In this document: positions 6,453 to 64,000 of the stretch, piece after piece | How positions within the stretch are numbered: position 1 is the stretch's first letter | Layout: every line of letters begins with the position of its first letter | Source: Anaerolineales bacterium | GTDB taxonomy: Bacteria; Chloroflexota; Anaerolineae; Anaerolineales; E44-bin32 | DNA length: 64,000 nucleotides | Direction: 5' to 3' | NCBI GenBank assembly: GCA_036397095.1 | Contig: DASWJQ010000108.1 | Location: forward strand, 5,385-69,384 | The notes under the pieces: generated by a model | Told to the model about the DNA's origin: nothing | Seen by the model: the letters and a program-made list of their open reading frames with translations, nothing else | Databases searched by the model: none | Program-made: the position numbers and the translations under genes

Positions 6453-6926
6453 ATGCAGCCTTTGCATACGGTTCGACTTACGGTCAACGGCCAGGCGTAC
6501 GAGCGACAGGTGGAGCCCAGGCTGCTGCTGTCCGACTTCTTGCGCCACGAACTGGCTCTGACCGGGACCCATGTTGGCTGCGAGCACGGCGTGTGCGGCG
6601 CGTGCACCATCTTGCTCGATGGCCAGTCCGTCCGCTCGTGCTTGATGCTGGCCGTGCAGGCTGAGGGCCACGAGTTGAAAACGGTCGAAGGGCTGGCGCC
6701 TTCGCCCGACGAGCTCCATCCGCTTCAGCAGGCCTTTTGGGAGAAACACGGCTTGCAGTGCGGTTTTTGCACCGCCGGCATCATGATGACGCTGGTGCCG
6801 TTCCTCGAGACCAACGAGCGGCCCAACGAAAACCAAATCCGCGAAGCACTCTCCGGCAACATCTGCCGCTGTACTGGCTACCAACACATCATTGACGCGG
6901 TGCTTCACGCCTCTCACCCAAGTTGA
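6453..6926 (+). CDS. Mo-hydroxylase [2Fe-2S] small subunit (CoxS-like)
   Basis: Both cluster motifs are present: CEHGVCGACT and CGFCTAG...CRCTGY. Confidence 0.9.
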   Translation: MQPLHTVRLTVNGQAYERQVEPRLLLSDFLRHELALTGTHVGCEHGVCGACTILLDGQSVRSCLMLAVQAEGHELKTVEGLAPSPDELHPLQQAFWEKHGLQCGFCTAGIMMTLVPFLETNERPNENQIREALSGNICRCTGYQHIIDAVLHASHPS

Positions 6927-6929
6927 TCG

Positions 6930-8285
6930 ATGGCTATCGCTGACCACTGCGAGCGCTTGGAGTCGTTAGCCGGTGTCCTGACGGGCGGCCGGCAAACGCT
7001 GGCCGGCTACCTGGACGAACTTGAAGAACGCTTCACCAGGATCGAGCCTGAGATCCAGGCGTTTGTCGAGGAGCCGGCGCGTTTTGCACGGTTGCGTGCG
7101 GAGGCGGCGCAGCTGCTCGAGGCGTATCCGCATCCCCAGGACCGGCCAGCCTTGTTTGGGGTGCCGGTTGGGGTCAAGGATATCTTTCATGTCGAGGGCT
7201 TGGTCACTCGGGCGGGAACAGTGCCACCGCCGGAACGGCTGCAGGGTCCGGAAGCCGAAGCCATCCATCGGCTGAAACAGGCCGGTGCGCTGATTCTGGG
7301 CAAGACGGTGACGACCGAGTTTGGCTATTTTGCACCCGGGCCGACGCGCAATCCGCACAACCCGGATCACACGCCGGGCGGGTCGAGCAGTGGGTCGGCG
7401 GCAGCTGTCGGTGCTGGCCTGTGCCCGCTGGCGGTCGGCAGCCAGACAATCGGATCCATCATCAGGCCTGCCGCGTATTGCGGGGTGGTCGGTTACAAAC
7501 CGAGCTACGGTCGCATCTCGCGCGTTGGCATGATCCCGCTGGCGCCGTCCGTCGACCATACCGGCTTTCTGACGACGGACGCCGTCTCGGCCAGGCTGGC
7601 GGCCAGCCAGCTGTGCTACGACTGGTCGACCCGCCAAGGCCGGCCGCGGCCGGTGCTTGGCGTACCGGAAGGGCCATACTTGGAGTACGCCGACCAGGTA
7701 GCGGTCGAACATCTGCGACATATTATTGGGGTCCTGGAGCAGGCCGGATTCGTCACCCGGCCGGTTCCCGCCCTGGCCGACTTCGATCAGGTGCAGCGAG
7801 CTCACCACCGTTTGGTCGCGGGGGAAGCGGCCCGGGTCCACCAACGCTGGTACGCCGACTATGTCGAAACCTATCATCCTACGACCCTGGCGTTGGTGCG
7901 GGATGGGCAGGCGGTCAGCGACGATGAGCTGACGGCGGCGCGTGAGAGCTGTCTTCGGCTGCGCCATCAATTGACCCAGACGATGGATGCCTACGGGATC
8001 GACCTGTGGATCACGCCCTCCGCCACCGGGCCAGCGCCGGCCGGGCTGGCCAACACCGGTGACCCGGTGATGAATCTGCCGTGGAGCCACGCAGGATTGC
8101 CGGCCCTGGGGCTACCGGCTGGCCTGGCGGCCAACGGTCTGCCGCTGGGGGTGCAGTTGGTGGGGCGCTGGTTTGCGGATGAAGAGCTGATGTCGCAAGC
8201 CATCGTTCTGGAGCAGGCCTTGGCGCCGCTCCAGGGCCGACCGTTTACCATGATTGCCGGCGACGATGTCGCCCGTCCAGAATAG
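6930..8285 (+). CDS. amidase-signature family amidase
   Basis: It has GVPVGVKD (catalytic Lys region) and the GGSSSGSAAAV amidase signature. It starts 3 nt after the coxS-like stop. Confidence 0.85.
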   Translation: MAIADHCERLESLAGVLTGGRQTLAGYLDELEERFTRIEPEIQAFVEEPARFARLRAEAAQLLEAYPHPQDRPALFGVPVGVKDIFHVEGLVTRAGTVPPPERLQGPEAEAIHRLKQAGALILGKTVTTEFGYFAPGPTRNPHNPDHTPGGSSSGSAAAVGAGLCPLAVGSQTIGSIIRPAAYCGVVGYKPSYGRISRVGMIPLAPSVDHTGFLTTDAVSARLAASQLCYDWSTRQGRPRPVLGVPEGPYLEYADQVAVEHLRHIIGVLEQAGFVTRPVPALADFDQVQRAHHRLVAGEAARVHQRWYADYVETYHPTTLALVRDGQAVSDDELTAARESCLRLRHQLTQTMDAYGIDLWITPSATGPAPAGLANTGDPVMNLPWSHAGLPALGLPAGLAANGLPLGVQLVGRWFADEELMSQAIVLEQALAPLQGRPFTMIAGDDVARPE

Positions 8286-25211: not shown

Positions 25212-25316
25212 CGATTCTCAACTGGTGCGCCCCAGGCAGAAGTTCAGCCAGACGTAGTCTCCGATGGGCGTAGATTCTTGAGTATCGCACCCAGACTGGG
25301 ACAGAGCCGTGAACAA

Positions 25317-25346
25317 TGTAGGGACGTTGTATACAACGTCCCTACA
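25317..25346. repeat. perfect 30-nt palindrome (REP-like hairpin) between convergent genes
   Basis: TGTAGGGACGTTGTATACAACGTCCCTACA is its own reverse complement. It shares the GTAGGGrCG arm start with the palindrome at 31072. Confidence 0.8.
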
Positions 25347-31071: not shown

Positions 31072-31093
31072 GGGGCGCATTGCAATGCGCCCC
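31072..31093. repeat. perfect 22-nt palindrome (REP-like hairpin)
   Basis: GGGGCGCATTGCAATGCGCCCC is its own reverse complement and is preceded by GTA, giving GTAGGGGCG. Confidence 0.8.
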
Positions 31094-50990: not shown

Positions 50991-52361
50991 CTAGCTGCCA
51001 CTGCGCCGGCGGAAAGACAGGCGGAGCGGGGTGCCGAGGAAGCCATAGCGCTTCCGGATCTGGTTCTCCAGGAAGCGCTTGTAGGAAAAGTGCACCAGGC
51101 GCGGATCGTTGACATGGAATAGAAACGTGGGCGGGTCGGTGCGAACCTGGGAGCCATAGTAGAACCGCAGCTGCTTTCCAGAATGCGTTGGGGGTGGATG
51201 GGCCGCCAGCGCCTCGTCGAGCATGCGGTTGAACTCGCCGGTCGGTATGCGCCGCAATCGTTCTTCCTGAACCTGCAACGCAAGCGGCAGCACCCGGTCC
51301 ACCCGTTGACCGGTCAGCGCCGAGATGAACAGCACCGGCACGTGTGGCAGAAAGCGCAAGCGCTGCTGGACGTTGGCGGCGTAGTCGTCCATTGTGTGGG
51401 TGTCTTTGGGCACCAGATCCCACTTGTTGACCAGCACCACCACGCTGCGGTACTGGTCGATGATCAAGCCGGCGATGTGGGTGTCCTGGGCGGTCACCCC
51501 ATCGGTGGCATCGACCATCAACAGGGCCACATCGGCCCGTTCGATCGCCCGCAAGGCGCGCAGGACGGAATACTTCTCGACACCGGGTTCGACCTTGCCA
51601 CGGCGGCGAATGCCGGCGGTGTCAATCAGGACGATTTCCTGGCCGTGATAAACGAGCGTCGTGTCGACCGCATCGCGCGTCGTGCCAGGGATGTCCGACA
51701 CAATGACTCGCTCTTGGCCCAACAGCCGGTTGAGCAGGCTCGACTTGCCGGCATTCGGCTTGCCGACGATGGCAATGTGCACCCGCTCGTCGTCTTCGAT
51801 CGGCAGGGGCGGCCGCGGGCCAAGTACTCCGAGCAGGCGGTCGAGCATGTCGCCGGTGCCGGTCCCGTGCAGGGCCGAGATGGCCAGTGGTTCCCCGATG
51901 CCCAGTTCGTAGAAGGCGGCGGCCTCAGCCCGCCGCTGGGCGTTGTCACACTTGTTGACCACAAGCAGCACCGGGGCAGGCGCAGCACCTGTCGGGCCCC
52001 GCCGGCGCAGGATGTGGGCCACTTCAAGGTCCGCCGGCGTCGGCCCGGCCAATCCATCCACAATGAAGATGACTGCGTCGGCCTCGCGCGCCGCCAGCTC
52101 AGCCTGGGCGCGTATCGCCTGAATGTAGTCGGCCGAGTCGACCGACAGGGGCTCTCCACCGGCCAGCGCGGTTGGATCGATGCCGCCCGTATCCACAATG
52201 TTGAAAGTGACCCCTTGCCACTCGGAGTCGGCCACCAACCGGTCGCGCGTGGTCCCCGGCTTCTCGTCGACGACCGCCAGCCGTTCACCCGCCAGGCGGT
52301 TAAACAGGGTTGACTTACCGACATTGGGGCGCCCAACAAGCGCCACGACCGGCGAGGCCAT
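50991..52361 (-). CDS. der: ribosome-biogenesis GTPase Der (EngA)
   Basis: Two G-domains (GRPNVGKSTL and GKPNAGKSSL) and a KH-like C-terminus. Confidence 0.95.
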   Translation of the reverse strand: MASPVVALVGRPNVGKSTLFNRLAGERLAVVDEKPGTTRDRLVADSEWQGVTFNIVDTGGIDPTALAGGEPLSVDSADYIQAIRAQAELAAREADAVIFIVDGLAGPTPADLEVAHILRRRGPTGAAPAPVLLVVNKCDNAQRRAEAAAFYELGIGEPLAISALHGTGTGDMLDRLLGVLGPRPPLPIEDDERVHIAIVGKPNAGKSSLLNRLLGQERVIVSDIPGTTRDAVDTTLVYHGQEIVLIDTAGIRRRGKVEPGVEKYSVLRALRAIERADVALLMVDATDGVTAQDTHIAGLIIDQYRSVVVLVNKWDLVPKDTHTMDDYAANVQQRLRFLPHVPVLFISALTGQRVDRVLPLALQVQEERLRRIPTGEFNRMLDEALAAHPPPTHSGKQLRFYYGSQVRTDPPTFLFHVNDPRLVHFSYKRFLENQIRKRYGFLGTPLRLSFRRRSGS

Positions 52362-52363
52362 AT

Positions 52364-53611
52364 TTACTCTTGCGTCGGGACGGCGGTTGGAGTCGGGGGA
52401 GGGGTGTCGGTGATCGTCAGCTCGATCGTGTCCGGCAGCACCGACTGCACGTTGACCTCCGGCAGGGCGACGATCACCTCGGGGGTCAACTGGTGAGAGC
52501 CTTCGGCCAGCCCAAGCACGTCGATAATCACGCGCACGTCGCGCGGCTGCAAACCGTCCAACACCGGCAGGGGGCCGGTCAGGATCAGGCTGACGCTTTG
52601 GGGGGAGGCCAGGGCGTACAGTCCATCCTCCAGGCCCTGCACTTCGACCTCGCGTGTAATCGTGATCGAGGTCTCGATCGGGTCGATGCTGACGCGGACG
52701 AGCACGCTCTGCTCGCCCACGATCGAGACGCCGGTCGGCAGGTCAAGGCTAACCCGCCGTTCGAAGTCGTCGGTGACATTGGTCAACGAGACAGGCTCAG
52801 TTTCTACGAAGCCGCTCAATTCATTCATCGCCAGCGGGTCTGAAGCAAAAACGCGCACAAGCGTAGGCGAAACCGTGATCTGGGTCAGCTGGTAGCCCGG
52901 TTCGAGTTCACCTTCAATCTTGGGCAGCACCACCACCGAGCGGTAGCCACCGAGGTCCTCAATGCCAATCGTCACCCGGATGGTGGCCGGCTGGAGCGTG
53001 ACGCCGGCGACCGGGTTGCCGTTCTCGTCGAGCGGCAGTGGTTCAATCTGTTCAATCAGCGCCTGGCTGCGGCCGCTGATATCGATTTCGCTGGCCACCG
53101 TCGCGATCCGGCTGACGGCCGAATCGGGGCCAATGACCGTGACTTCGGCTGGTTCGAGTTGTGGGGCGGTAGCGCGGAAACCGACCGGCGGCTCACCGAC
53201 AATGTTGATTTCGACCGGGAATACGGCTGAGGCGGTAGGCTCGAGCGTAAGCGTCAAGTTGGCCGGCTCAATCCGGGTTATCTCAACCGGACGGGCGCCG
53301 ACCCGGTACTGCACCGGATAACGCCCTTCGCCGGTGGTGGCGCTGGCCAGATCGACCCACAGTTCGACATCGGCCTGCGACAGGCCGTTCCATACGGATT
53401 GGGGTGCCCGCAGGGTGACCCGGGCGGTCTCCGGTGGTTGGTTGACGATCATGAGCCCGGCGGGCTGGCTGCGCAGCTCGATCGGCACCGGGTTGGGCAG
53501 GGTGCGCTCTTCGACGGGGTCTTCGGCCGAAACGGCGGCGACCCAGACGGTGATGGCCAGCACCAGGGCCAGCAGGAGCGAACTCAGATTGCGCCAAAGC
53601 CAACGAAGCAT
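52364..53611 (-). CDS. cdaR: YbbR-domain protein (CdaR, diadenylate cyclase regulator)
   Basis: An N-terminal TM helix is followed by repeated YbbR-like beta modules, immediately downstream of cdaA. Confidence 0.8.
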   Translation of the reverse strand: MLRWLWRNLSSLLLALVLAITVWVAAVSAEDPVEERTLPNPVPIELRSQPAGLMIVNQPPETARVTLRAPQSVWNGLSQADVELWVDLASATTGEGRYPVQYRVGARPVEITRIEPANLTLTLEPTASAVFPVEINIVGEPPVGFRATAPQLEPAEVTVIGPDSAVSRIATVASEIDISGRSQALIEQIEPLPLDENGNPVAGVTLQPATIRVTIGIEDLGGYRSVVVLPKIEGELEPGYQLTQITVSPTLVRVFASDPLAMNELSGFVETEPVSLTNVTDDFERRVSLDLPTGVSIVGEQSVLVRVSIDPIETSITITREVEVQGLEDGLYALASPQSVSLILTGPLPVLDGLQPRDVRVIIDVLGLAEGSHQLTPEVIVALPEVNVQSVLPDTIELTITDTPPPTPTAVPTQE

Positions 53612-53620
53612 AGGTGGATC

Positions 53621-54499
53621 CTAACCGCGTCCGGCGACTTCCGCGCTGAAGCGGTTGAAGCGCTCGATGAGCCCTTCCAGCCACTCCGGCAGCAGTCGTG
53701 GGGCCTGTGGGCGGTAGAAGGCAATCAGAATGTTGCGCAGCCGGCTGGCGTCCAGCCGCCGGATCATGCGTCCGTTGTGGGCCACCGAAACCACGCCGCG
53801 CTCCTCCGACACGACCACGGCGACCGCATCACTGACCTCGCTGATCCCCAGGGCTGCCCGGTGGCGCAGGCCCATTTGGCGGTCGGGCGAGCGGGACAAT
53901 GTACCGCTGGCCGACAGGGGCAGCACGCACGATGCGGCCACTATCCGGTCGCCACGCACGATGACGGCCCCGTCATGCAAGGGTGTATTCAGGAAGAAGA
54001 TTTGCAGGAGCAGTTCGGCGGAAAGCATGGCGTCGAGCGGGACACCCGTCTCGATGTACTCCTCGAGCTGGACCTCCCGTTCGATGACGATCAACGCGCC
54101 ATGGTAATGGTCGGTCAGGCGTTGGGCGGCGGTGACGATGGCGTCGATCCGGACTTCGATCTCGCCGGGTTCGGCGTTGGCGGTCAGAATCGTGCCCGCA
54201 CGGCCGATGCGTTCCAGTGCCCGCCGGATCTCGGGGGCAAATATGACTGGAATGGCGACGAGCAAGGCAGGCAGGGCCGTCCTTAACAAGAAGGAAAATG
54301 CGGGCAGCTCTAGCAAACTGGTGAGCAGCGTGATGCCGATGAGAAGCAGGATCATCCCCCGCAGCAGCACAACGGCCTGGGTGCCACGAACGAGGGTCAG
54401 GATGAGGAAGAAGATGACCGTGACCAGAACGAGGTCAACAACGTCCAGCCAATCGACCCGCTGGAAGAGAAAGATCAGTTCATTGAGCAGGTCAGTCAC
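53621..54499 (-). CDS. cdaA: diadenylate cyclase CdaA
   Basis: GTG start. Three N-terminal TM helices precede a DAC domain (TPLHDGAVIVRGDRIVAA, GLRHRAALGISEVSDAVAVVVSEERG). Confidence 0.9.
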   Translation of the reverse strand: MTDLLNELIFLFQRVDWLDVVDLVLVTVIFFLILTLVRGTQAVVLLRGMILLLIGITLLTSLLELPAFSFLLRTALPALLVAIPVIFAPEIRRALERIGRAGTILTANAEPGEIEVRIDAIVTAAQRLTDHYHGALIVIEREVQLEEYIETGVPLDAMLSAELLLQIFFLNTPLHDGAVIVRGDRIVAASCVLPLSASGTLSRSPDRQMGLRHRAALGISEVSDAVAVVVSEERGVVSVAHNGRMIRRLDASRLRNILIAFYRPQAPRLLPEWLEGLIERFNRFSAEVAGRG

Positions 54500-54519
54500 G
54501 GTTGGTTGTCTGTCGGTTC

Positions 54520-56901
54520 CTAGGGCTCACCGGACTGCTGCTTCTTGAGGTTCGCCAGCAGATCCACGTAGCCACTTGAATCAGGCGGTTCCAGGTCAAC
54601 AATCGTCTGAATGGTCTTGATTGCGGCCTGAGTTTGGCCGGCGTCAAGCTGGAGTTCGCCCAGCGCGTCGTATTGGGCGATCGCATCTGCCTTGCGCCCG
54701 GCGGCCCGGTAGGCGTCGGCCAGCCGAGCGTGCAGCGCTTGTTTCCCCGGATGCTCGCGGGCCAAGTCCTCGAGCAGCTCGAGCGCTTGGGTGCCGTGGC
54801 CGGCGTTGACCAATTGCTCCAGGTGGCCGTCGAGCGCTTCGGCGGCTTGGTCTTCCTGGCCCAGGCGCAGGTTGAGATCGATCAGCCGGGCGCGGGCGTC
54901 GGCGTTGGTCGGGTCGAGCTGCCGGATCTTCTGGTAGACATCTAGCGCCATGCGCCAGTCGAGCCGGGATACTTCAATGTCGCCCAGCATCTTCAACAAC
55001 CGGAGCTTGGAGGCGTTGCCCGCACCAACTTGTTCGGCATGGGCAACGGCGTCGGCCAGTGTCTTGCGGGCCAGATCAATTTGAGCCATCTGGCGGAAGA
55101 GCTCGGCCAGTTCAATGTAGTGTACGAGCGCTTCATCGAAGCGGCCCTGCGTTTCAAGCAGCCGAATGAGGCGTTGGCGCGCCAGGCGGTCGACCGGCGA
55201 GTGACGCAGCAGGCGTGCGTAGACCTCGGAAGCCTCACGCACCTCACCGCGGACACGGTGGGTTTCGGCCACCATGCCCAGCTTGACGATGCCCGCCTCA
55301 TCCTGGCCGCTGCGCAGTTGGATTTCGGCCATACGACGGTGAAGGGCCAAGTAGCTTGGCGCAAATTGGAGGGCGAGCATCGTCTCCTCCATGGCCGAGG
55401 CCATCAGGCCCTCCTTGATGTAGCCGTCAATGCGGTTAAGGGCGCTCATGACCCGGCCGCTGCCGCCGACAGCGATCATGTGGGCAATGGGCACGACCGA
55501 TGCATCATCCGAGTCGCCGCGCAATTGTGCGCGCGCCTGCCGGATGCGCTGGAGCCATTGCGGGCCGCTGAGGAAGTTGAGCGTGTTCTCGACGATCTGG
55601 TTCAGCGAATCCTCGTCGCCCTCATCCTGGGTGGCCAGGATCGAATCGTACAACTGGCTCAACTCGCTCGACTTGGATTCGTCGACCGACAGGCTGTCGG
55701 CAAGGCGCAGCGCCTGCACCAAATGGCGGGCGGCTTCGCTCATATCGCCCTGCAAGCGGCACAGCCGGCCTAGCGCCAGGTTGGCGCCCAATTCGAGCTC
55801 GGGATGGCCGACTGCGTCCAGCAAGTGCTTCTTAGCTTCGTCGTAGTCGCCCAGGTCCTTGAACAAGAGCCCCAGGTTGTAGTGGGCCGCAGGATGGTTC
55901 AAGCCGGCTTGAATGGCCCGTTCGAATTCCTTGGCCGCCTGGCGCTTGTTTTCCCGCGATTGCAAATCGATGGCCTGGCTCAAGTAACGGTACATCACCG
56001 GCTGGCCGGCCGATTCCTTTCGGCTCGAGGCGCGGCCCCTGGTCAGCGCCTCGAAGTCGAGGCCCTCGCCCGACCCGTTCTCGCTGCCATCGCTGTCTTC
56101 GAACAGCAGGCCAGCCAGCACCGATAAAGCCTGGCGTCGGGCTCCCTCCTCCGGGTCTTCCAGCCCGACCTTGTGCCCGTCCGAGTCGAGCTCGAGTTTG
56201 CCGTCCTCGGCCAACAATTCGCCTTCGACGCGCGACTCGAGGAGGGTCTTCAGCTGGCTTATGCGCAGCGGCCGGGTGGCGCCGCGCGGCGGAGGTGGAT
56301 CCGGCAATGGCTTGCCGGCGCGCAAAGTGCGCATGGCTTCGGTGGCCTCGGCATCACCTGGGATGATGGTCAGCGCCCGCTGCAGGGCCTCTGTTGCCGA
56401 GTCGAGCCGGCTGGCCTTCTGCAGGATGGCGGCGACGGCCAGGTATTCGTGGGCTGCTTCACGCCGGCGGCCGAGCCGTTCGTTGGTCAGCGCCAGGCGC
56501 GATCGGGCTTTCAGGTTGCTCGGTGCCAGGCGCCCGATGTCGGTCCAATTCTCGACCGCTTTCTCGGCGTCCCGGCGCTGCATGTAGCGTTCGGCGGCCA
56601 GCTCTCGCTGTTGGACGGCCTCGGACGTCTGGCCAAGGCTCTCGAAGATCTCAGCGCATTTCTCGAAGGGGATGGGATCGTCCGCCGTTAGCTTGCTGGC
56701 CTGATGGTAGGCGGCCAGCGCTTCCTTTTCGTGGCCCGTCTCAAGCAATGCCAAACCAAGACTGACGAGTGCGTCGGGGTTCTCCGGAGACTCGGCGAGC
56801 GCCTTCCGGTAGTACCCGATCGCCCGCTCCCAGTCCTGTTCCCAAGCAGCCGAGTGGCCAAGCTGCATGGACTCTTCAAAGAGCTCGAACCGTCCGGTCA
56901 T
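54520..56901 (-). CDS. large TPR-repeat protein
   Basis: 793 aa of recurring TPR-like A-x-x-x-Y/ A-L-x-x-x-P patterns. There is no TM helix or enzymatic motif. Confidence 0.75.
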   Translation of the reverse strand: MTGRFELFEESMQLGHSAAWEQDWERAIGYYRKALAESPENPDALVSLGLALLETGHEKEALAAYHQASKLTADDPIPFEKCAEIFESLGQTSEAVQQRELAAERYMQRRDAEKAVENWTDIGRLAPSNLKARSRLALTNERLGRRREAAHEYLAVAAILQKASRLDSATEALQRALTIIPGDAEATEAMRTLRAGKPLPDPPPPRGATRPLRISQLKTLLESRVEGELLAEDGKLELDSDGHKVGLEDPEEGARRQALSVLAGLLFEDSDGSENGSGEGLDFEALTRGRASSRKESAGQPVMYRYLSQAIDLQSRENKRQAAKEFERAIQAGLNHPAAHYNLGLLFKDLGDYDEAKKHLLDAVGHPELELGANLALGRLCRLQGDMSEAARHLVQALRLADSLSVDESKSSELSQLYDSILATQDEGDEDSLNQIVENTLNFLSGPQWLQRIRQARAQLRGDSDDASVVPIAHMIAVGGSGRVMSALNRIDGYIKEGLMASAMEETMLALQFAPSYLALHRRMAEIQLRSGQDEAGIVKLGMVAETHRVRGEVREASEVYARLLRHSPVDRLARQRLIRLLETQGRFDEALVHYIELAELFRQMAQIDLARKTLADAVAHAEQVGAGNASKLRLLKMLGDIEVSRLDWRMALDVYQKIRQLDPTNADARARLIDLNLRLGQEDQAAEALDGHLEQLVNAGHGTQALELLEDLAREHPGKQALHARLADAYRAAGRKADAIAQYDALGELQLDAGQTQAAIKTIQTIVDLEPPDSSGYVDLLANLKKQQSGEP

Positions 56902-56936
56902 AGGCGAATCTTAAGAAAAATGCGGCAGGCCAAGCG

Positions 56937-56945
56937 AGTATAGCA
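56937..56945 (-). promoter_or_regulatory. extended -10 promoter (TGCTATACT) upstream of the TPR-cdaA-cdaR-der gene string
   Basis: On the minus strand TGCTATACT lies about 36 nt upstream of ATG 56901. Confidence 0.4.
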
Positions 56946-57014
56946 CAAACAGCTCCCTCGCCCGGATATGCCCATAGGGCTAGCCGCCAGCGGCCCTTTT
57001 GGCGGCTGGATGGG

Positions 57015-59801
57015 TCACGCTAGCGGCCGCATCTCGTACCAGTTGGGTCCGGTCTTGGCCTCGGTCTTGAGCGGTACGTCCAGTTCGTAGGCCTGCCGCA
57101 TCAAGCGCTGCGCCAGCTGGTTGGTTGCTTCCAGCTCGTCTTCGGCCACCTCGAAAACCAACTCATCGTGCACCTGAAGCAGCATCTTGGCAGACAGGCG
57201 TTCCTTGGCCAGGGCCGCCGGTAGGTCGAGCATCGCCAGCTTGATAATGTCGGCGGCGGTACCCTGAATCGGAGCGTTGATGGCCTCGCGCTCGGCGCGC
57301 GCTTTGGCCTGCTGCGCCACGGCTGGCCCGCCCTCTTCCAGCTGTGGGAAGTAGCGCCGGCGGCCGAGCAGGGTCTCGACGTACCCGTCCTGACGGGCCC
57401 GTTCCTTGGTTTCCTCCAGGTAGCGCTTGACCCCGGGGAAGCGCTCGAAGTAGGCACTGACGAAGTCCTCGGCTTCGGCCAAGGTCAGGTCGGTGGTGCG
57501 AGTCAAGCCAAACGGACTCATGCCGTAGATCAAGCCAAAGTTCACGCCTTTGGCCCGGCGGCGCATGCTGGAGTCGACCTCATCCAGCGGTACGCCGAAG
57601 ACGGCCGAGGCAGTAGTTGCGTGGATGTCCTGATCCTGCTCGAACGCCTCGATCATGGCCTTGTCCCGCGCCATGTGGGCCACAATGCGCAGCTCGATTT
57701 GCGAGTAGTCAATGTCAAGCAGGACCTTGCCCGGCTCGGCGACAAAGGCTTTGCGGATTTGTCTGCCCAATTCGGTCCGGATCGGGATGTTCTGCAGGTT
57801 GGGGTCGGATGAGGCCAGCCGGCCGGTCACGGATCCAATCTGGCTGTACGAAGTGTGGACCCGTCCGGTGGTCGGATTGACCTGGGCCCGCAGGGCATCG
57901 GCATAGGTCGATTTGAGCTTGGCGATTTCACGGTGCTCCAGGATCAGCTCGACGACCGGGTGGGCCGACTGCAATTCCTCGAGCACAGAGGCGGCGGTCG
58001 AGTAGAAGCCGGAGGCCGTCTTGCGAGTGCGATCCGGCGGTTGCAGGCCCAGCTTTTCAAACAGGATCTCGCTCAACTGCTGCGGCGAATTCAAGTTGAA
58101 TTCCTGGCCGCATTGCTTGAAGATTTGGACTTCAATTTCAGCCAGCCGGCTTTCCAGGCCGGCGCCGAACTCGTCCAGAAACGCCGAGTCGAGTTTGATC
58201 CCGGCCATTTCCATACCGGCCAGGATCGGCACCAGCGGCATTTCGACCTTGTGGAACAAATCGAGTTGGGCCTTCTCCTGGAGCTCTTGCTCGAGTTGCG
58301 CTTGAAGCGCCAGGCAGACAGCGGCGTCGGCGGCGGCATAGGGCGCCACGTCGGCGATCGCTACCTGGGCCATGGTCCGCTGGTTGCGCCCCGTGCCGAT
58401 CAGCTCGCTGATCTCGGTCATCTCAACGCCCAGCCGCACCCAGGCCAGGTTTTTCAGTCCCAGGTTATGTGAGCCCGGATCACATAGCCACTCGGCGATC
58501 ATGGTGTCAAAGGCGAGCGGCGTGGCCTCGAGGCCATAACGAGCCAGCACCAGGAAGTCGTATTTCAGGTTATGGCCGACTTTGGGGATTTTGGGGTTAT
58601 CCAGGGTGGGGCGCAGTGCCTCAAGCACGGATTGCAGGTCGAGCTGGTCGCCGCCGGCGTGAGACGCTTCATGTCCGACCGGCAGGTAGTAGCCGGTCTC
58701 CGGTTCGGTCGCCAGCGAAATCCCCACCAGGTCGGCGGTCATCGGATCGGTGCTGGTCGTCTCAACGTCAAAGGCGATGCGTTTGGCCTTTGCCAGCGTC
58801 TTGGCCAGTTCCTCCAGTGCTTCCGGGTTGTCTACAATCTGGGCATCCTGGCTGGCACTTGGCGCGCGATTTTCCGAACTGACAAACAGCGCCATCTGCT
58901 GGCCATCGGCCTTGCCTTCGCTGGCCGGGATGCGGTCCATCAGGGAACGGAATTCCAAGGTGCGGAATAATTCGAAGACTTGATCGCGGTTGTAACCCTG
59001 GGCCCGGCAGGCATCGAGGTCGAAGCGAAGCGGGACATCGGTGACGATTTGTGCCAGCTTGCGGCTCAGCTCGGCTTCCTCCCGGCTAGCGGCCAGCTTG
59101 TTGCGGAAACGGGCTGGGATCTCTTCCAGGTGTTCAAAGATGGCGTCCAAGGTTTCGTAGTCCTGGAGCAGCGAGATGGCTGTTTTCTCACCGACACCGC
59201 GCACACCGGGGATATTGTCGCTGCTATCGCCCACCAACGCCTTGAAATCCACGATCTGGCTGGGCGGCACGCCCATTTTGCCTTCGACCTCGGTTGGGCC
59301 GAAATCCTCGGCCTCGGAAAGCTTCTGCCCAGCCAGGCGAATGATCACCCTGTCCGTCGCCAACTGAAGCAGGTCGCGATCACCGGTGAGGATGATGACC
59401 TGAACGCCGGCTTCGGCGGCCTGGCGGGCGACAGTGCCCAGCACGTCGTCGGCTTCGTAGCCCTCCGACTCCAGGATGGGGATGCCGAATGCCGCCACCA
59501 CCTCACGAATGCGGTCGATCTGCAGGGCCAGGTCATCCGGCATCTTCTCGCGCGTCGCCTTGTACTCGGCAAACAGGTCGTCACGGAAGGTGCGGCCCGT
59601 GTCGAAGGAGACCGCCAGATACTCGGGCTTCTCTTGCTCCAACAGGCGCAGCAGCACGGAGGTGAAGCCATAGGTGCCGGCGGTTGGTTCGCCGGCCTTG
59701 GTCATCCAACGGGTGCCGCCGCCGACGGCTGTCAGGGCAAAGTAGGTGCGGTACGCCAGGGCGTGACCGTCGATCAGAAAAAGGCGAGGCGTGGCCGGCA
59801 T
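57015..59801 (-). CDS. polA: DNA polymerase I
   Basis: Start moved to ATG 59801 (MPATPRLFLIDGHALAYRTYFA, the 5' nuclease N-terminus). Pol motifs A (LLDIDYSQIELR) and B (RRRAKGVNFGLIYG) and the QVHDELVFE motif are present. Confidence 0.95.
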   Translation of the reverse strand: MPATPRLFLIDGHALAYRTYFALTAVGGGTRWMTKAGEPTAGTYGFTSVLLRLLEQEKPEYLAVSFDTGRTFRDDLFAEYKATREKMPDDLALQIDRIREVVAAFGIPILESEGYEADDVLGTVARQAAEAGVQVIILTGDRDLLQLATDRVIIRLAGQKLSEAEDFGPTEVEGKMGVPPSQIVDFKALVGDSSDNIPGVRGVGEKTAISLLQDYETLDAIFEHLEEIPARFRNKLAASREEAELSRKLAQIVTDVPLRFDLDACRAQGYNRDQVFELFRTLEFRSLMDRIPASEGKADGQQMALFVSSENRAPSASQDAQIVDNPEALEELAKTLAKAKRIAFDVETTSTDPMTADLVGISLATEPETGYYLPVGHEASHAGGDQLDLQSVLEALRPTLDNPKIPKVGHNLKYDFLVLARYGLEATPLAFDTMIAEWLCDPGSHNLGLKNLAWVRLGVEMTEISELIGTGRNQRTMAQVAIADVAPYAAADAAVCLALQAQLEQELQEKAQLDLFHKVEMPLVPILAGMEMAGIKLDSAFLDEFGAGLESRLAEIEVQIFKQCGQEFNLNSPQQLSEILFEKLGLQPPDRTRKTASGFYSTAASVLEELQSAHPVVELILEHREIAKLKSTYADALRAQVNPTTGRVHTSYSQIGSVTGRLASSDPNLQNIPIRTELGRQIRKAFVAEPGKVLLDIDYSQIELRIVAHMARDKAMIEAFEQDQDIHATTASAVFGVPLDEVDSSMRRRAKGVNFGLIYGMSPFGLTRTTDLTLAEAEDFVSAYFERFPGVKRYLEETKERARQDGYVETLLGRRRYFPQLEEGGPAVAQQAKARAEREAINAPIQGTAADIIKLAMLDLPAALAKERLSAKMLLQVHDELVFEVAEDELEATNQLAQRLMRQAYELDVPLKTEAKTGPNWYEMRPLA

Positions 59802-59871
59802 GCAACATGCTCCCGGTTGGGGGGGGAAATCGGCCCATTGTAGCATTGCGAACGATCGGTTCCGGTCGAGG

Positions 59872-61938
59872 TCAGCCGTCCAGGCCCTGGGCCAGCCGGG
59901 TGCGTTCGACAAAGCGATCGATGTCGTCCGGCCCTGGCTCTTCCCCGGCAATCAACAGATAAGCGCGGGCCCAGAACCGGCCCGAGGGCAGGTCCGTATG
60001 GAAGTTGGGATAGCGTTCAAGCACGCGGCGCGATAGGTCGTCGCGCAGCTGCTCGATGGCGTGGGCCGGGGCGCTTTCGGGGATCAGGCTGACGCGGATG
60101 GCCAGGTAGCCGGACGTGACCGAAATCCTGTCGGCGCGCCAGTCCCAGGCCAGGCAAAAACGCTGCGCCCACTCGCGCAGCTGGCGCGCCAACTCACCAC
60201 TGAGATAGTGTTCGGGAAAGCGAGGGACTAGCACCGCCGTGAACGGAAGGTGGTAGGTCGCTTCCTGGACCGGGGAGTCAAAGATGGTACCGTCGGTCAT
60301 GGCTGGCCCGGCGGTCTCTTCAAGGATGGCGAAGTAGGCCTCGGGCGGTTGGGCGCGTGGGATCCAATCGCGCGGCAGTGGCTGGGTGGTCGGTTTGGCT
60401 GGTGCGGGCCGGCGCGGCGCGGCCGGCTGCGGGTCCGGTGGCGGCAGGTCGACTTGTGTCAACTCCTCCAGCAAGGCTTGATGGGCCGGGCTCAACGAAG
60501 GGGCCGGCCGCCAGTCATCGGGCAGCTTGAGCGCCGGCTCCGGTTCGGGGAGAGCTTCCAGTTCGGTTGGTGAAGCTGGCACCGGCTCCGGTTCGGGCGG
60601 TCCAGGCGGGGGAACCGGTTCGGCTGGCGCGGGCGCCGGCTCCGGTGGGGGCGGTGCAGGCGGGGGAACCGGTTCGGTTGGCGCGGGCACCGGCTCCGGC
60701 GGGGGCGGTGCAGCCGGAGGTTCCTGTTTGGCTGTCGCGGGCGCCGGCTCAGGTAGTGGCGGTGCAGGTGGGGTTTCCGGTTCGGCTGGCGGTGTGGGTG
60801 CCGGCTCCGGTGGGGGCGGTGCGGGGGGGGGTGCCGGTTCGGCCGGCAGCCTGGGCGCCGGCTCCGGTGGGGGCGGTGTAAGTGGGGTTTCCGGTTCGGC
60901 CGGCGGCTTGGGCGCCGGCTCCGGTGGGGGCGGTGCGGGGGGCGGTTGTGGGCCGGCCGGTGGCGTTGGCCCCCGACTGGGGGAGGGCGAGATCGATCTC
61001 GGCATCAGATCGGGAAAGCTCGGGGAAGGGCGGGTCGGTCCGGTTGTCCCTGGACGCCCCAGTGCCTTCGACGGGGGTGGCCAGACCGTACGTGGGGCAG
61101 GTGCAGGCTGCTTGACAGGCATTTCGCCGCCAAGCAACCGGTCGGCGATCTGGCGCGTGGTTTCCCGGACGTCTGAGAATGGATGGTCGGCCGGGAATAC
61201 GACCCCCAGGCGAACGCCGCCGGGAAGTGGTGCGGTGTACAGCAGTTGGTCGCGGTAGGCGCCGCTGACGCGCACATATTGGGCCGTGGCGCCGGAGGTG
61301 CCGCGACGGCGATCGGTCAGGGGCAGGCCTTCGGCCAACTGCTGGGCATCGCGCCGGGATAGACCGGCGAAGGCAAGCGCCTGGCCGTCCTTGGCCAGCA
61401 GGCAGCCCGGCAGTCCCAGTTGGTCGCACAAAGCATGCAAGGTCGAGCCGGCGGCTTCGTAACGCCGGCGCAACGATCGGGTCGGAGTAGGCGTTGGTCC
61501 AGGTTTAGCCTGCGGCGTCCGTCGCGGTTTGGGCAAGGGCCCGGTGCCTGGCAGCGGCCCGGTGCCGCCGAAAGTTTTGGGCGCCTCAAGGGCGCGGGTC
61601 AGCACCGCCGGCAGTTCCGGCAAGTAGAACGGCTTGGTCAGGACGCCTTGGACCTGTACGTCCTTAAGTTCATCTTCGCCGGAGCCAACCATGGGAATGG
61701 CGACGATCTTCAAGTCGGCCGAGCGGCGGCGCAGCAGGCGGACCAGGTCGGCGCCGGACATGTCCGGTAGGCCAAAGTCGATGATCGCCAAATCAAACGC
61801 ATGATGGGAGACAAGATCTTCGGCCTGGCTGCCGCTCGTGGCCAGGGCGACTGCGTACTCACCGGTATCTTCCAGCGACTGCCGAATCAGCATGCCGAAT
61901 TCGCGGTTGGCGTCGACGATGAGTACCGGCGTGGTCAT
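59872..61938 (-). CDS. response-regulator receiver - Roadblock/LC7-like? - proline-rich repeats - degenerate IS200/Y1-transposase-like domain
   Basis: Start moved to ATG 61938 (MTTPVLIVDAN). REC motifs are DLAIIDFGLPDMSG and LTKPF. The C-terminal block YHLPF..VPRFPE...SGYLAIRVSLIPESAPAHAIEQLRDDLSRRVLERYPNF...RFWARAYLLIAGE...IDRFVERT is collinear with IS200 TnpA, but it lacks the HUH motif and the catalytic Tyr. Confidence 0.7.
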   Translation of the reverse strand: MTTPVLIVDANREFGMLIRQSLEDTGEYAVALATSGSQAEDLVSHHAFDLAIIDFGLPDMSGADLVRLLRRRSADLKIVAIPMVGSGEDELKDVQVQGVLTKPFYLPELPAVLTRALEAPKTFGGTGPLPGTGPLPKPRRTPQAKPGPTPTPTRSLRRRYEAAGSTLHALCDQLGLPGCLLAKDGQALAFAGLSRRDAQQLAEGLPLTDRRRGTSGATAQYVRVSGAYRDQLLYTAPLPGGVRLGVVFPADHPFSDVRETTRQIADRLLGGEMPVKQPAPAPRTVWPPPSKALGRPGTTGPTRPSPSFPDLMPRSISPSPSRGPTPPAGPQPPPAPPPPEPAPKPPAEPETPLTPPPPEPAPRLPAEPAPPPAPPPPEPAPTPPAEPETPPAPPLPEPAPATAKQEPPAAPPPPEPVPAPTEPVPPPAPPPPEPAPAPAEPVPPPGPPEPEPVPASPTELEALPEPEPALKLPDDWRPAPSLSPAHQALLEELTQVDLPPPDPQPAAPRRPAPAKPTTQPLPRDWIPRAQPPEAYFAILEETAGPAMTDGTIFDSPVQEATYHLPFTAVLVPRFPEHYLSGELARQLREWAQRFCLAWDWRADRISVTSGYLAIRVSLIPESAPAHAIEQLRDDLSRRVLERYPNFHTDLPSGRFWARAYLLIAGEEPGPDDIDRFVERTRLAQGLDG
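60581..60965. repeat. seven tandem 54-57-bp repeats (encode the 18-19-aa Pro-rich PPPEPAPxPPAEPxxPPA units)
   Basis: The core GCCGGCTCCGGTGGGGGCGGTGC recurs at 60581, 60635, 60689, 60743, 60800, 60857 and 60914, giving spacings of 54,54,54,57,57,57. Confidence 0.85.
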
Positions 61939-61989
61939 GTCATCAATGTAGCACGCCCGCCGGGCGCTTGCCAATGTCCCGGGGCGCGC

Positions 61990-62727
61990 TCAGTTGTCGG
62001 GGGTCTGGCTGGGCGTGGCGGTGGAGCTTGCCGTCGGAGTGGATGTTGGCGTGCTCGTCGATCCGGCCTCCGTGGCCGTCGGGCTGCTGGTTGCTGTTGC
62101 CGTGCTCGGGGAGGTCGGCGGCGCCGGCACCACGATCTTGACCCAGAAGGATTGGTCCCCCTGGGGACCAATGCCGAAGAACTCGCCATCGGGTGTGCGC
62201 AGCTTCCAATACCCCTGGTAGGTGCCCGGTTCGGCAGGGGCCTTCATATCGACCGCCAGGTCGACGATTCCGTCGGGCGCCACCTCGCTGGAGAGGGAGA
62301 CCGTGTCCGGTGCGTTCAGGCGGTTGCCGCCGAAGAACGATAGCAGGTAGGCGGGTGTCCAAGTGCAGGAGCCGGTGTTGCGCAAGCGCCAGATTTTGAC
62401 AAAGGTCTCCCCTGGGTCCAGTTGGCTGTTGTCACGCACGGTGACATCATCGATGAAGGCCGCCCGGTTGTCGCAGGGCTCGTCGTCGGTCGGGGCTGGG
62501 GTTGGCGATGGCTGCGGGCTGGCAAGCACAGGCTGGGTTTGCCGGGCGACGCCGGTGGCTGCGATGCCTGGGCCGGTCCGCGTCAGCACTGCCTCGACCG
62601 TCAAAGCGGCCGCGGCCACGCTGGGCGTAGCGCTGGCCGGGGGCGCCTGGCCGAGCAAGTTGCAGCCCGCCAAGAGCGCACCCACCAGCAGCAGAAGGGG
62701 AAGTTGACGCAGTTTGTCCATGACCAT
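61990..62727 (-). CDS. lipoprotein with NBR1-type Ig-like domain and Thr/Ser/Pro-rich tail
   Basis: Start moved to ATG 62727. The lipobox is LLAGC. FVKIWRLRNTGSCTW...GTYQGYWKLRTPDGEFFG is the N_BRCA1_IG-like pattern. Confidence 0.7.
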   Translation of the reverse strand: MVMDKLRQLPLLLLVGALLAGCNLLGQAPPASATPSVAAAALTVEAVLTRTGPGIAATGVARQTQPVLASPQPSPTPAPTDDEPCDNRAAFIDDVTVRDNSQLDPGETFVKIWRLRNTGSCTWTPAYLLSFFGGNRLNAPDTVSLSSEVAPDGIVDLAVDMKAPAEPGTYQGYWKLRTPDGEFFGIGPQGDQSFWVKIVVPAPPTSPSTATATSSPTATEAGSTSTPTSTPTASSTATPSQTPDN

Positions 62728-62838
62728 TTGCTCGTGTGTGAGCTGGGCGATTCTACCGCGCCACGGCCGGCGGCGGTTAGCGACAAAGCAAAGCGCCCGG
62801 GATAGGCCCGGGCGCTGTGGTTGCACGGAGATTGGGCG

Positions 62839-63843
62839 TTACTTCCAGGTGCGGATGTCGATCGTCAGCACCGGGGGGTTGGCACCCGAGATCTTTTCGA
62901 TCTCAAAGCGGCCGATGCGGCCTTCGCTGGTCTGGAAACAGAGCCAGTCGCCGACCTCGAAGTCGTCAAAATCGATGCGGTCATCAGATAATTCGCCGTC
63001 GTCGTCGCAGTCCTCGAAGTCGGGCACACCATCGGTCCATAGGAAGGCCTCGGCGTCGTTGACGGGGGTCAGGTAGCGCTCGACGGCGCTGATCGACTCG
63101 TACCATAGGTCGCGATCGGCATTGCTGTCTGCCGGGCTCTCCCCCTCGTCCAGATCCACATGGAACGAAGGCTTGAGCTCAATCTTGGCGGTCTTATACA
63201 CGCTGGGTGCCGGCGTCGGCGTCGGGCCAACGACGATCTGGACCCAGAAGGCGACGTTGGCATTGGCGCCGATGCCGAAGTTCACCCCGGTGGCGTTCTG
63301 CAACAACCAGTTGCCGCGGTAGGTGCCGTTGCTGGCAGGTGCCTCGAGGTCGACCGAAAGGTCGACCGTGCTGTTGGGGGGGACATTGCCGGACAGCGGC
63401 TGGCTGGCAGGTCCATCCATCGAGCGGCCACTGTCGAAAACCAGCTTGTATTGGGTCGTCCAGGTGCAGGTGCCGGTGTTACGCAAGCGCCAGGTCTTGG
63501 TGAAATCCTCACCCGGTTCGAAGTACGTGTCATCCGGGACGGTCACATCCGAGAGGAAGGAAGCACGATCGGTGCATCCGGTTGGGACCGGTGTGGCCGT
63601 GGGACCGGCTGGTGTGGCCGAGGCTGGCGGTGTGTTCGTGGCGGCCGCTGTCGGCGAGTCGGTCGGCAGTTGGCCGGCCGACCGGGTCAGCTCGGCGGCG
63701 ACGGTTTCGGCGGCGGCCGTGGCGTTGGCATCCTCGGTCGCCTGCTGGCCGGCGCTGGTTCCCAAACCTGGCATGTTACAGGCCGCCAGAATCAGGGACA
63801 GCAGAACCGGGACGGCAAAGACAATGAACGGGCGGCGTGGCAT
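62839..63843 (-). CDS. lipoprotein with NBR1-type Ig-like domain plus extra acidic C-terminal domain
   Basis: Start moved to ATG 63843 (AGGAGG RBS). The lipobox is ILAAC. FTKTWRLRNTGTCTW...GTYRGNWLLQNATGVNFG. It is a paralogue of the neighbouring gene. Confidence 0.7.
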   Translation of the reverse strand: MPRRPFIVFAVPVLLSLILAACNMPGLGTSAGQQATEDANATAAAETVAAELTRSAGQLPTDSPTAAATNTPPASATPAGPTATPVPTGCTDRASFLSDVTVPDDTYFEPGEDFTKTWRLRNTGTCTWTTQYKLVFDSGRSMDGPASQPLSGNVPPNSTVDLSVDLEAPASNGTYRGNWLLQNATGVNFGIGANANVAFWVQIVVGPTPTPAPSVYKTAKIELKPSFHVDLDEGESPADSNADRDLWYESISAVERYLTPVNDAEAFLWTDGVPDFEDCDDDGELSDDRIDFDDFEVGDWLCFQTSEGRIGRFEIEKISGANPPVLTIDIRTWK

Positions 63844-64000
63844 CGAGTCCTCCTTGAAGGACCACAGCTTTGGCGGATATCGGGTTGGTTGCAAGGTGCG
63901 TTCCAAGCTGTACGATGGCATGCTAGCTATGTCAGGTTCAATCGTCAAGAGGGGAGGTGCAGTTGGGAGAGATTCAGGCGGCCGTTGCTAGCGAGGCTGG

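Follow-up and report, generated by a model that had tools for sequence, protein, structure and literature searches.

What is the product of a gene that annotation pipelines call a transposase, that begins as a response regulator and that lies directly upstream of polA, the gene for DNA polymerase I (Pol I)? The question is raised by a minus-strand gene in a 64,000-nucleotide stretch of contig DASWJQ010000108.1, from an Anaerolineales bacterium of the Chloroflexota; the whole of this stretch is referred to here as the window. Source annotations in its protein family read "IS200/IS605 family transposase" (NCBI) and [quoted passage not shown] (JGI), with IS denoting insertion sequence and REP repetitive extragenic palindrome. 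An earlier note on this DNA had proposed a response regulator carrying a dead transposase fold as its output. On the strength of the alignments and structure models described below, we conclude that the C-terminal domain is a conserved derivative of the TnpA fold, incapable of DNA cutting and joining by the HUH mechanism, and that the gene belongs to a large family of chromosomal, vertically inherited signalling proteins of the Anaerolineae (Chloroflexota). The protein is a domesticated transposase, the function of which is probably DNA-related.

59872..61938, minus strand: whole gene, with receiver, Roadblock domain, Pro-rich linker and dead Y1-transposase domain (uninterrupted open reading frame (ORF), 688 aa, ATG start)

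Transposase Fold and Catalytic Positions

59881..60267, minus strand: catalytically dead IS200/IS605 Y1-transposase-fold domain, residues 558–686 (Pfam, PDB alignments, AlphaFold2 (AF2), Foldseek, family columns)

The proposal that the last ~125 aa are IS200-type TnpA-like came with two suggested checks, a Y1_Tnp profile comparison and an AlphaFold model searched with Foldseek, and both agree with it. Pfam Y1_Tnp (PF01797) matches residues 562–678 (model positions 3–119 of 121) with 30.8 bits (gathering cutoff 23), rising to 35.3 bits with the C-terminal domain scanned alone, while the NCBIfam IS200 equivalog NF033573 gives 30.4 to 34.8 bits, below its cutoff of 55. Comparison with PDB sequences by phmmer returns the S. 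tokodaii IS200 transposase 2ec2 at 8.6e-5 and ISDra2 TnpA at ~1e-3. The AF2 model of the domain, built from a 40-sequence alignment, has a predicted local distance difference test score (pLDDT) of 94.4, and in a Foldseek comparison with the PDB its 29 best matches are without exception IS200/IS605 TnpA proteins (ISDra2, IS608, Sulfolobus), with E values from 1.8e-11 to 3e-8 and template modelling (TM) scores of 0.72–0.83; the structure of a REP-associated transposase (RAYT), 4er8, is matched more weakly (E=2e-4, TM 0.55).

Catalytic positions were assigned from pairwise alignments to 2ec2, 2xm3 and 2f4f and from a MAFFT alignment of 154 family members with the same three references. The HUH motif (HvH/HiH) corresponds to Y611-L612-A613 (codons 60100-60108) and the catalytic Tyr of helix D (kYie) to F676 (codon 59911-59913), in agreement with the earlier reading of Y-L-A and Phe at these places and of a cleavage chemistry that is gone. 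Throughout the family the first-His column is occupied by Y (111 members), H (14), F (9) or others (20), with A, L and R among the residues seen, and the second by Q (80), L (19), H (14), A (11), R (11) or others (19), YLQ being the commonest triad. The catalytic-Tyr column holds F in 119 members, Y in 34 and I in 1. HUH and Tyr occur together in none of the 154, and the only member with both His has Phe at the Tyr position. Since the HUH metal site and the nucleophilic Tyr are gone, HUH-mechanism chemistry is lost with them. Non-catalytic motifs are invariant or nearly so, namely PRFPxHxL after β1, WR, PSGxFWA before β4 and TRxxQG at the end.

Could a Tyr at the first-His position, or the C-terminal Tyr found in the minority of members, sustain some residual, non-canonical catalysis? 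The prevalence of Tyr at the former position and of the YLQ triad speaks for such an activity; however, no HUH metal site is formed without two His, the window protein has Phe at the nucleophile position, and within its own clade the triad reads YLA, HLQ, YLV, ALR or RLE, so that the first position is itself variable. We consider residual catalysis very improbable.

Family and Distribution

The family was collected by comparing the C-terminal 149 aa exhaustively, by phmmer, with 1.84 billion representatives, the full-length query having been swamped by Pro-rich words (2 matches). At E<1e-3 this yields 797 representatives, of which 536 remain at E<1e-10, and the best 150 matches are mostly 500–700 aa long with the dead domain at the extreme C-terminus. 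Full-length members match Y1_Tnp in 86 of 86 cases and Response_reg in 64 of 86. A scan of GTDB, with one genome per species and two peptide patterns only, places the family in at least 477 species genomes; the best 80 of the 477 are all Anaerolineae/Anaerolineales/Chloroflexota metagenome-assembled genomes. The loci of these best 80 were found via a subfamily alignment and are for that reason biased to the main Anaerolineales clade and not to the window's own.

The database names imply that an ordinary IS200/IS605 element has entered a response-regulator gene or been joined to one by misassembly, and such an insertion or chimera had also been raised in the earlier note. The Y1_Tnp score above the gathering cutoff and the names themselves ("IS200/IS605 family transposase", "RayT") fit this explanation. 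Against it stand the HUH and Tyr combination missing in all 154 members, the 30–35 bits obtained with the NCBIfam IS200 model against a cutoff of 55, a one-frame, four-part architecture that recurs in hundreds of species, and a chromosomal position fixed beside polA (see below); moreover, the gene lists and ORF tables inspected, which were not searched systematically for flanking IS ends or tnpB, showed neither. With the catalytic residues lost, the NCBIfam cutoff unmet and both architecture and polA position conserved, we reject insertion or chimera and give it next to no credence.

Several database entries for the family are products of gene calling. The JGI caller splits the window gene and yields P0003, a 236-aa "RayT" with a GTG start inside the Pro-rich repeat that is 100% identical to the C-terminal part, and long-read contigs such as L006 break the gene by frameshifts, P0221 being a fragment in such a contig. 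Such splits and frameshifts mean that many short database "transposases" of the family are fragments of a long signalling protein, and the short matches (130–230 aa) in the C-terminal-domain search are mostly truncated or split gene calls, with the exception of a 189-aa group, P0247. This stand-alone dead Y1 domain (L007, 5691-6260; present on 58 contigs) has the triad YLH, Phe at the Tyr position and a disordered N-terminus, and its gene sits between a hemerythrin gene and DUF1521/FlbD/MotAB/FliLMN genes, near genes for a methyl-accepting chemotaxis protein (MCP) and CheW. The group looks truly stand-alone, and the context at L007 is motility and not polA.

Linkage to polA

57015..59801, minus strand: polA, full-length DNA polymerase I (Pfam 5_3_exonuc_N, 5_3_exonuc, DNA_pol_A_exo1, DNA_pol_A)
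59802..59871, minus strand: spacer to polA, 70 nt (extended -10-like TGCTACAAT, GGGAG Shine-Dalgarno)

The stop codon of the dead-transposase gene occupies 59872-59874 and the ATG of polA is at 59801, so that 70 nt separate two genes on the same strand, as had been noted earlier, and polA is full-length. The -10-like TGCTACAAT of the spacer is also present in the close relative L001. No terminator and no significant hairpin is found in the window spacer, the DNA fold of which (z=+0.89) is no better than that of shuffles.

Among the best 80 GTDB loci, 63 of 75 informative genomes have polA directly downstream on the same strand, at gaps of 58–884 nt. A gene for a tetratricopeptide repeat (TPR) protein follows polA in 43 of 54 related genomes, and a homologue of the window's upstream neighbour is found in 0 of 68. 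The closest homologues, L001 and L002, keep the upstream pair of N_BRCA1_IG genes, and L001 also has polA 70 nt downstream; at 40–56% domain identity, L003 and L004 have polA next and then the TPR protein, as does the frameshifted contig L006. The survey of homologues suggested in the earlier note thus finds both the shared architecture and the polA synteny conserved over hundreds of Anaerolineae species. The polA side being kept across deep divergence, and the other flank not, argues for a functional tie between the two genes.

From the fold and the gene order together we infer nucleic-acid binding and a functional link to polA. By analogy with TnpA, the dead domain may be an output that binds nucleic acid and acts at polA or close to it, in the simplest case by local regulation where the two genes meet; we hold this reading tentatively and at somewhat less than an even chance.

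The Junction in Relatives

L034, 6426-6459: junction hairpin, example (sequence)
L045, 6428-6461: junction hairpin, example (sequence)

Many relatives (L027-L086; from metagenomes, L088-L207) carry a hairpin between the dead-transposase gene and polA. Its stem, CGC[A/G]GAG...CTC[T/C]GCG, is 7–13 bp long, its loop consists of TATAAT plus 2–5 nt, and a T-rich run follows; one form in relatives reads CGCAGAG-TATAATCA-CTCTGCG. Stem variants are compensatory (CGCAGAG/CTCTGCG, CGCGGAG/CTCCGCG, GTGCAGAG/CTCTGCAC). With both strands of all loci and the window considered (977 kb), 36 of the 38 TATAAT-loop hairpins that have 6 or more perfect pairs lie at the junction. A protein-independent scan of metagenome contigs for CGCRGAGTATAATNNCTCYGCG gave at least 120 loci; among those listed, 89 are flanked by both the dead-transposase gene (at most 400 nt upstream) and polA (at most 600 nt downstream), 18 end at a contig edge on one side and are consistent on the remaining side, 8 have the gene upstream with polA undetected within 600 nt (matching elsewhere in some), and 5 have no dead-transposase gene detected upstream or, in one case, a contig too short upstream. 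TTGACA precedes TATAAT by 20 nt in L034, L042, L045, L056, L064, L084 and L106 (hand count). Rfam holds no family for the junction hairpin.

On the plainest reading of these sequences, the hairpin would be an intrinsic terminator of the upstream gene that overlaps the polA promoter at its -10 box. More speculatively, the hairpin is a candidate ligand of the dead domain, being a hairpin of the type bound by Y1 transposases and placed like the right-end hairpin of an IS. Taking this one step further, the transposase and its cognate subterminal hairpin could have been domesticated together, the hairpin now serving as operator with the polA TATAAT in its loop, and Pol I expression would then track the single-strandedness or supercoiling of the DNA via hairpin extrusion and binding. 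We regard this extension as rather improbable; if true, it would add a new class to the known modes of transcription control in bacteria, and the protein would be the first of response-regulator type to have an output derived from a transposase.

Upstream of the TATAAT hairpin, several Anaerolineales genomes (L058, L062, L063, L065, L066, L071, L073, L075, L086) have a different palindromic repeat (GTCATTGCGAGG...GAAGCAATCTCC...CTCGCAATGAC) inserted, which looks like one of REP or miniature inverted-repeat transposable element (MITE) type.

The gene order is also compatible with an action at the level of protein, in which the dead domain would recognise single-stranded DNA hairpins or fork-like structures, as on the lagging-strand template or in repair gaps, and recruit or modulate Pol I with no control of polA transcription. 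The conserved adjacency supports this as well, the 70-nt gap without terminator in the window fits co-transcription, and IS608 TnpA binds single-stranded DNA hairpins, recognises fork-like DNA and co-localises with stalled replication forks (PMC5027513). A further hint comes from a clade without polA adjacency, in which the gene is followed at L008 by a convergent ORF (6471-7889, minus strand) that we take, from sequence alone and unconfirmed, to encode the DNA-repair protein RadA/Sms; this neighbour is known from one clade and may be a coincidence. Against a general partnership with Pol I, the terminator-like hairpin between the genes in many relatives indicates that co-expression is not the rule. 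We think this explanation unlikely.

Receiver, Roadblock Domain and Linker

61603..61926, minus strand: atypical receiver, residues 5–112 (Pfam Response_reg PF00072)
61135..61482, minus strand: Roadblock/LC7/MglB-fold domain, residues ~153–268 (AF2 model and Foldseek)
60274..61104, minus strand: Pro-rich linker, probably disordered, residues ~279–555 (composition, Tandem Repeats Finder, sequence)

How the output might be controlled depends on the parts that precede it. The N-terminal segment matches Response_reg at E=1.6e-16 (60.9 bits, cutoff 30.2) and 99 PDB receivers at E<1e-3. Alignment to PhoP and other solved receivers puts the five signature positions at D9, A10, D54, P82 and K102. Of the earlier description as a normal receiver domain, the receiver fold, the phospho-acceptor Asp in AIIDFG (D54, CheY D57) and the conserved Lys in LTKPF (K102, CheY K109) stand; the word normal does not, as two of the five residues are gone, with A10 in place of the second acidic Mg-binding residue (of the CheY D12/D13 pair) and P82 in place of Thr/Ser (CheY T87). 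The 86 full-length relatives show a similar pattern: D54 is kept in 80 and K102 in 57, with a further 15 having R there; T (45) and D (28) predominate at position 9 and P (40), A (20) and S (16) at position 10, and at position 82, that of the Thr, 56 have P. In receivers the acidic pair holds the Mg2+ required for phosphotransfer. Because this pair and the Thr are incomplete, phosphorylation appears doubtful for most family members and uncertain for the window protein. No histidine kinase domain is encoded from Der to the second N_BRCA1_IG gene (window ~50991-63948), nor beside the gene in L003 and L004, though a cognate kinase may be encoded farther away.

The middle of the protein had tentatively been called Roadblock/LC7-like, and the structure comparison substantiates the call. 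An AF2 model from a 39-sequence alignment (pLDDT 88.4) has the topology α-β-β-α-β-β-β-α, and the 50 best PDB structures that Foldseek finds for it are, throughout, Roadblock-type proteins or complexes with a Roadblock component (MglB, Roadblock/LC7, LAMTOR/Ragulator), with a best E value of 1e-4 and TM scores mostly of ~0.6. The Pfam profile PF03259 (Robl_LC7) gives no match to the window protein even at E<=10, and is matched by 1 of 86 relatives (E=0.0054). The segment is alignable throughout the full-length relatives. On the basis of the model we conclude that the middle domain is of Roadblock/MglB fold.

The linker is 40% Pro over residues 286–555, and in its DNA Tandem Repeats Finder detects a repeat at 60578..60969 with a period of 54–57 nt, 6.7–7 copies and ~80% matches, which accords with the seven Pro-rich repeats of 18–19 aa counted earlier. 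Between the repeats and the dead domain (60274-60500, residues ~480–555) lie the motifs LPDDWRP and LPRDWIP (LPxDWxP) and an acidic helix-like stretch, HQALLEELTQVDLPPPDP. These are kept in P0001 and P0002, with similar LPxDWIP motifs in the fragments P0033, P0036 and P0059, and to judge from their sequence they may be linear interaction motifs.

This architecture invites another explanation, in which the dead domain would be a module for protein–protein contacts, for example dimerisation, and the whole protein a scaffold or polarity adaptor resembling RomR that works with a small GTPase via its Roadblock domain, the polA adjacency being incidental. Dimerisation is obligate for Y1 transposases; adaptor-type response regulators likewise have atypical receivers; the Pro-rich linker is long; the C-terminal domain of the window protein is not basic; and the stand-alone 189-aa version belongs to a flagellar/chemotaxis cluster (L007). 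The Roadblock/MglB fold of the middle domain points the same way, this fold partnering small GTPases in characterised systems (PMC4316618). Incidental adjacency is, however, hard to square with a polA position held at 31–40% domain identity (63/75, against 0/68 for the other flank), and no neighbouring gene in the window or at the inspected loci codes for a small GTPase, the Der/EngA gene at 50991-52361 encoding a ribosome-assembly GTPase and not one of MglA type. The window domain also retains the loop after β1 and the FW motif that are common to real TnpA. A scaffold of this kind seems to us somewhat unlikely.

Proposed Function

For the local regulator at the gene–polA junction, the following sequence of events can be envisaged. 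The atypical receiver and the Roadblock domain are joined by the long Pro-rich tether to the exapted TnpA domain, which would serve as output module. The dead domain, descended from proteins that bind subterminal hairpins, would most likely bind nucleic acid that is structured or single-stranded, and the N-terminal domains would control this output via a protein partner, a conformational signal or possibly phosphorylation of D54. Its target would be tied to the neighbouring polA, most simply through regulation at the junction itself. In many relatives the operator there would be the hairpin with its TATAAT loop, overlapping terminator and polA promoter. In the window's clade, in which the hairpin is absent and the 70-nt gap holds no terminator, the two genes would probably be co-transcribed, and any link may be at the level of protein.

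Several observations weigh against this proposal. About 12 of the 75 genomes have no adjacent polA (clade L008-L016 plus L018, L021 and L023), and among members of one class a shared gene order may be retained with no functional link behind it. No junction hairpin is present in the window or in its close relative L001, and the window junction has no significant structure at all. Where the hairpin does occur, it may be a mere terminator that overlaps the polA -10 box; at L191 hairpin and polA are present without the dead-transposase gene, and at L106 another gene lies upstream. The C-terminal domain of the window protein is near neutral (isoelectric point (pI) 6.5, against a family median of 8.9). 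Finally, with the Mg-binding and Thr positions of the receiver incomplete, the input may be other than phosphorylation.

Relation to Known Systems

The window domain shares its fold over its whole length with IS200/IS605 TnpA (IS608, ISDra2, Sulfolobus IS200) and keeps the P-[KR]-[YF]-x of the β1 loop, the Ser in helix B, the (F/L)W before β4 and the C-terminal helix D. It differs from these enzymes in lacking HUH (Y-L-A) and the nucleophilic Tyr (Phe) and in falling short of the NCBIfam equivalog cutoff. Unlike stand-alone TnpA, it ends a 688-aa signalling protein that is encoded at a single conserved locus with no tnpB among the listed neighbours. RAYT (TnpA-REP) proteins are likewise host-retained Y1-transposase derivatives, and the JGI RayT label reaches the window gene via a COG assignment. 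In RAYTs both HUH and Tyr are retained and REP hairpins lie on either side, whereas the window domain is without catalytic residues, resembles 4er8 less closely than TnpA, and lies in a window in which no REP family was found.

Among response regulators of adaptor type or with non-canonical output, RomR has a receiver followed by a Pro-rich tether and, at the C-terminus, a region for interactions. The window protein is built in the same manner as RomR and FrzS, with an N-terminal receiver, a long Pro-rich tether and a C-terminal effector region, and it shares an incomplete receiver signature with phosphorylation-independent response regulators; it departs from RomR and FrzS in its transposase-derived output and in the additional Roadblock domain between receiver and tether. 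Compared with MglB and Roadblock/LC7 proteins, the middle domain is of the same fold but is fused within a multidomain protein, has no adjacent small GTPase gene and lies below Pfam detection.

The open-access full-text literature yielded no description of a response regulator with an IS200/Y1 output, of an inactive or domesticated Y1 transposase of this kind, or of a receiver–Roadblock protein in Chloroflexi. The earlier statement that no response-regulator output of this kind had been described holds for that literature, with the qualification that the domain pair is already present in the automated annotation of NCBI and JGI. In the 2018 classification of the TnpA-Y1 superfamily by Quentin et al., members are defined by a conserved HuH/Y core and receiver fusions are unmentioned (PMC6006769). 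The architecture is thus recorded by annotation pipelines but uninterpreted, and its inactivity is unrecognised. In eukaryotes, domesticated transposases that have lost catalysis and act as DNA-binding regulators are well known; to our knowledge they are rarely documented in bacteria, in which the known Y1 domestication, RAYT, retains its active site.

An inactive HUH-transposase fold that is fixed in a whole bacterial class, fused with signalling domains and found in linkage with polA offers a tractable prokaryotic case of transposase exaptation, a candidate new output domain for receiver-containing proteins and a possible handle on polA regulation or on the assistance of Pol I in Chloroflexota. 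For annotation, the names "IS200/IS605 family transposase" and "RayT" mislead in hundreds of entries, and the mobile-element counts of Anaerolineae genomes are too high as a result.

Other Features of the Window

61945..61974, minus strand: promoter-like TTGGCA-18-TACATT with TG extension (consensus scan, 1 site against 0.1 expected)

The earlier note had speculatively connected GTAGGGrCG palindromes of the window with the hairpin binding of Y1 folds, and this connection is not upheld. GTAGGGRCG occurs 3 times against 0.71 expected, a number reached in 2 of 100 shuffles, and we do not count this as enrichment. The palindromes are two different ones, TGTAGGGACGTTGTA/TACAACGTCCCTACA (30 nt, 25316-25345) and GGGGCGCATTGCAATGCGCCCC (22 nt, ~31072-31093), that have the GTAGGG prefix only in common, and with nothing tying them to the gene they were dropped both as ligand and as repeat family. 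They may be terminators or isolated REP-like hairpins.

For the start of the gene, an in-frame TTG at 61974, 36 nt 5' of the ATG, would give 12 extra residues; the ATG is preferred and the TTG unlikely because the closest homologues (P0001, P0002) start MTTP/MATP. The -10 hexamer TACATT of the promoter-like site stops 7 nt 5' of this ATG, a spacing that suggests that the mRNA may be leaderless.

Downstream of the gene, the minus-strand order over 50991-59801 is polA, a large TPR protein with a BTAD-like region, a diadenylate cyclase (DAC/CdaA), a YbbR (CdaR-like) protein and Der/EngA, and the same order is found in L004.

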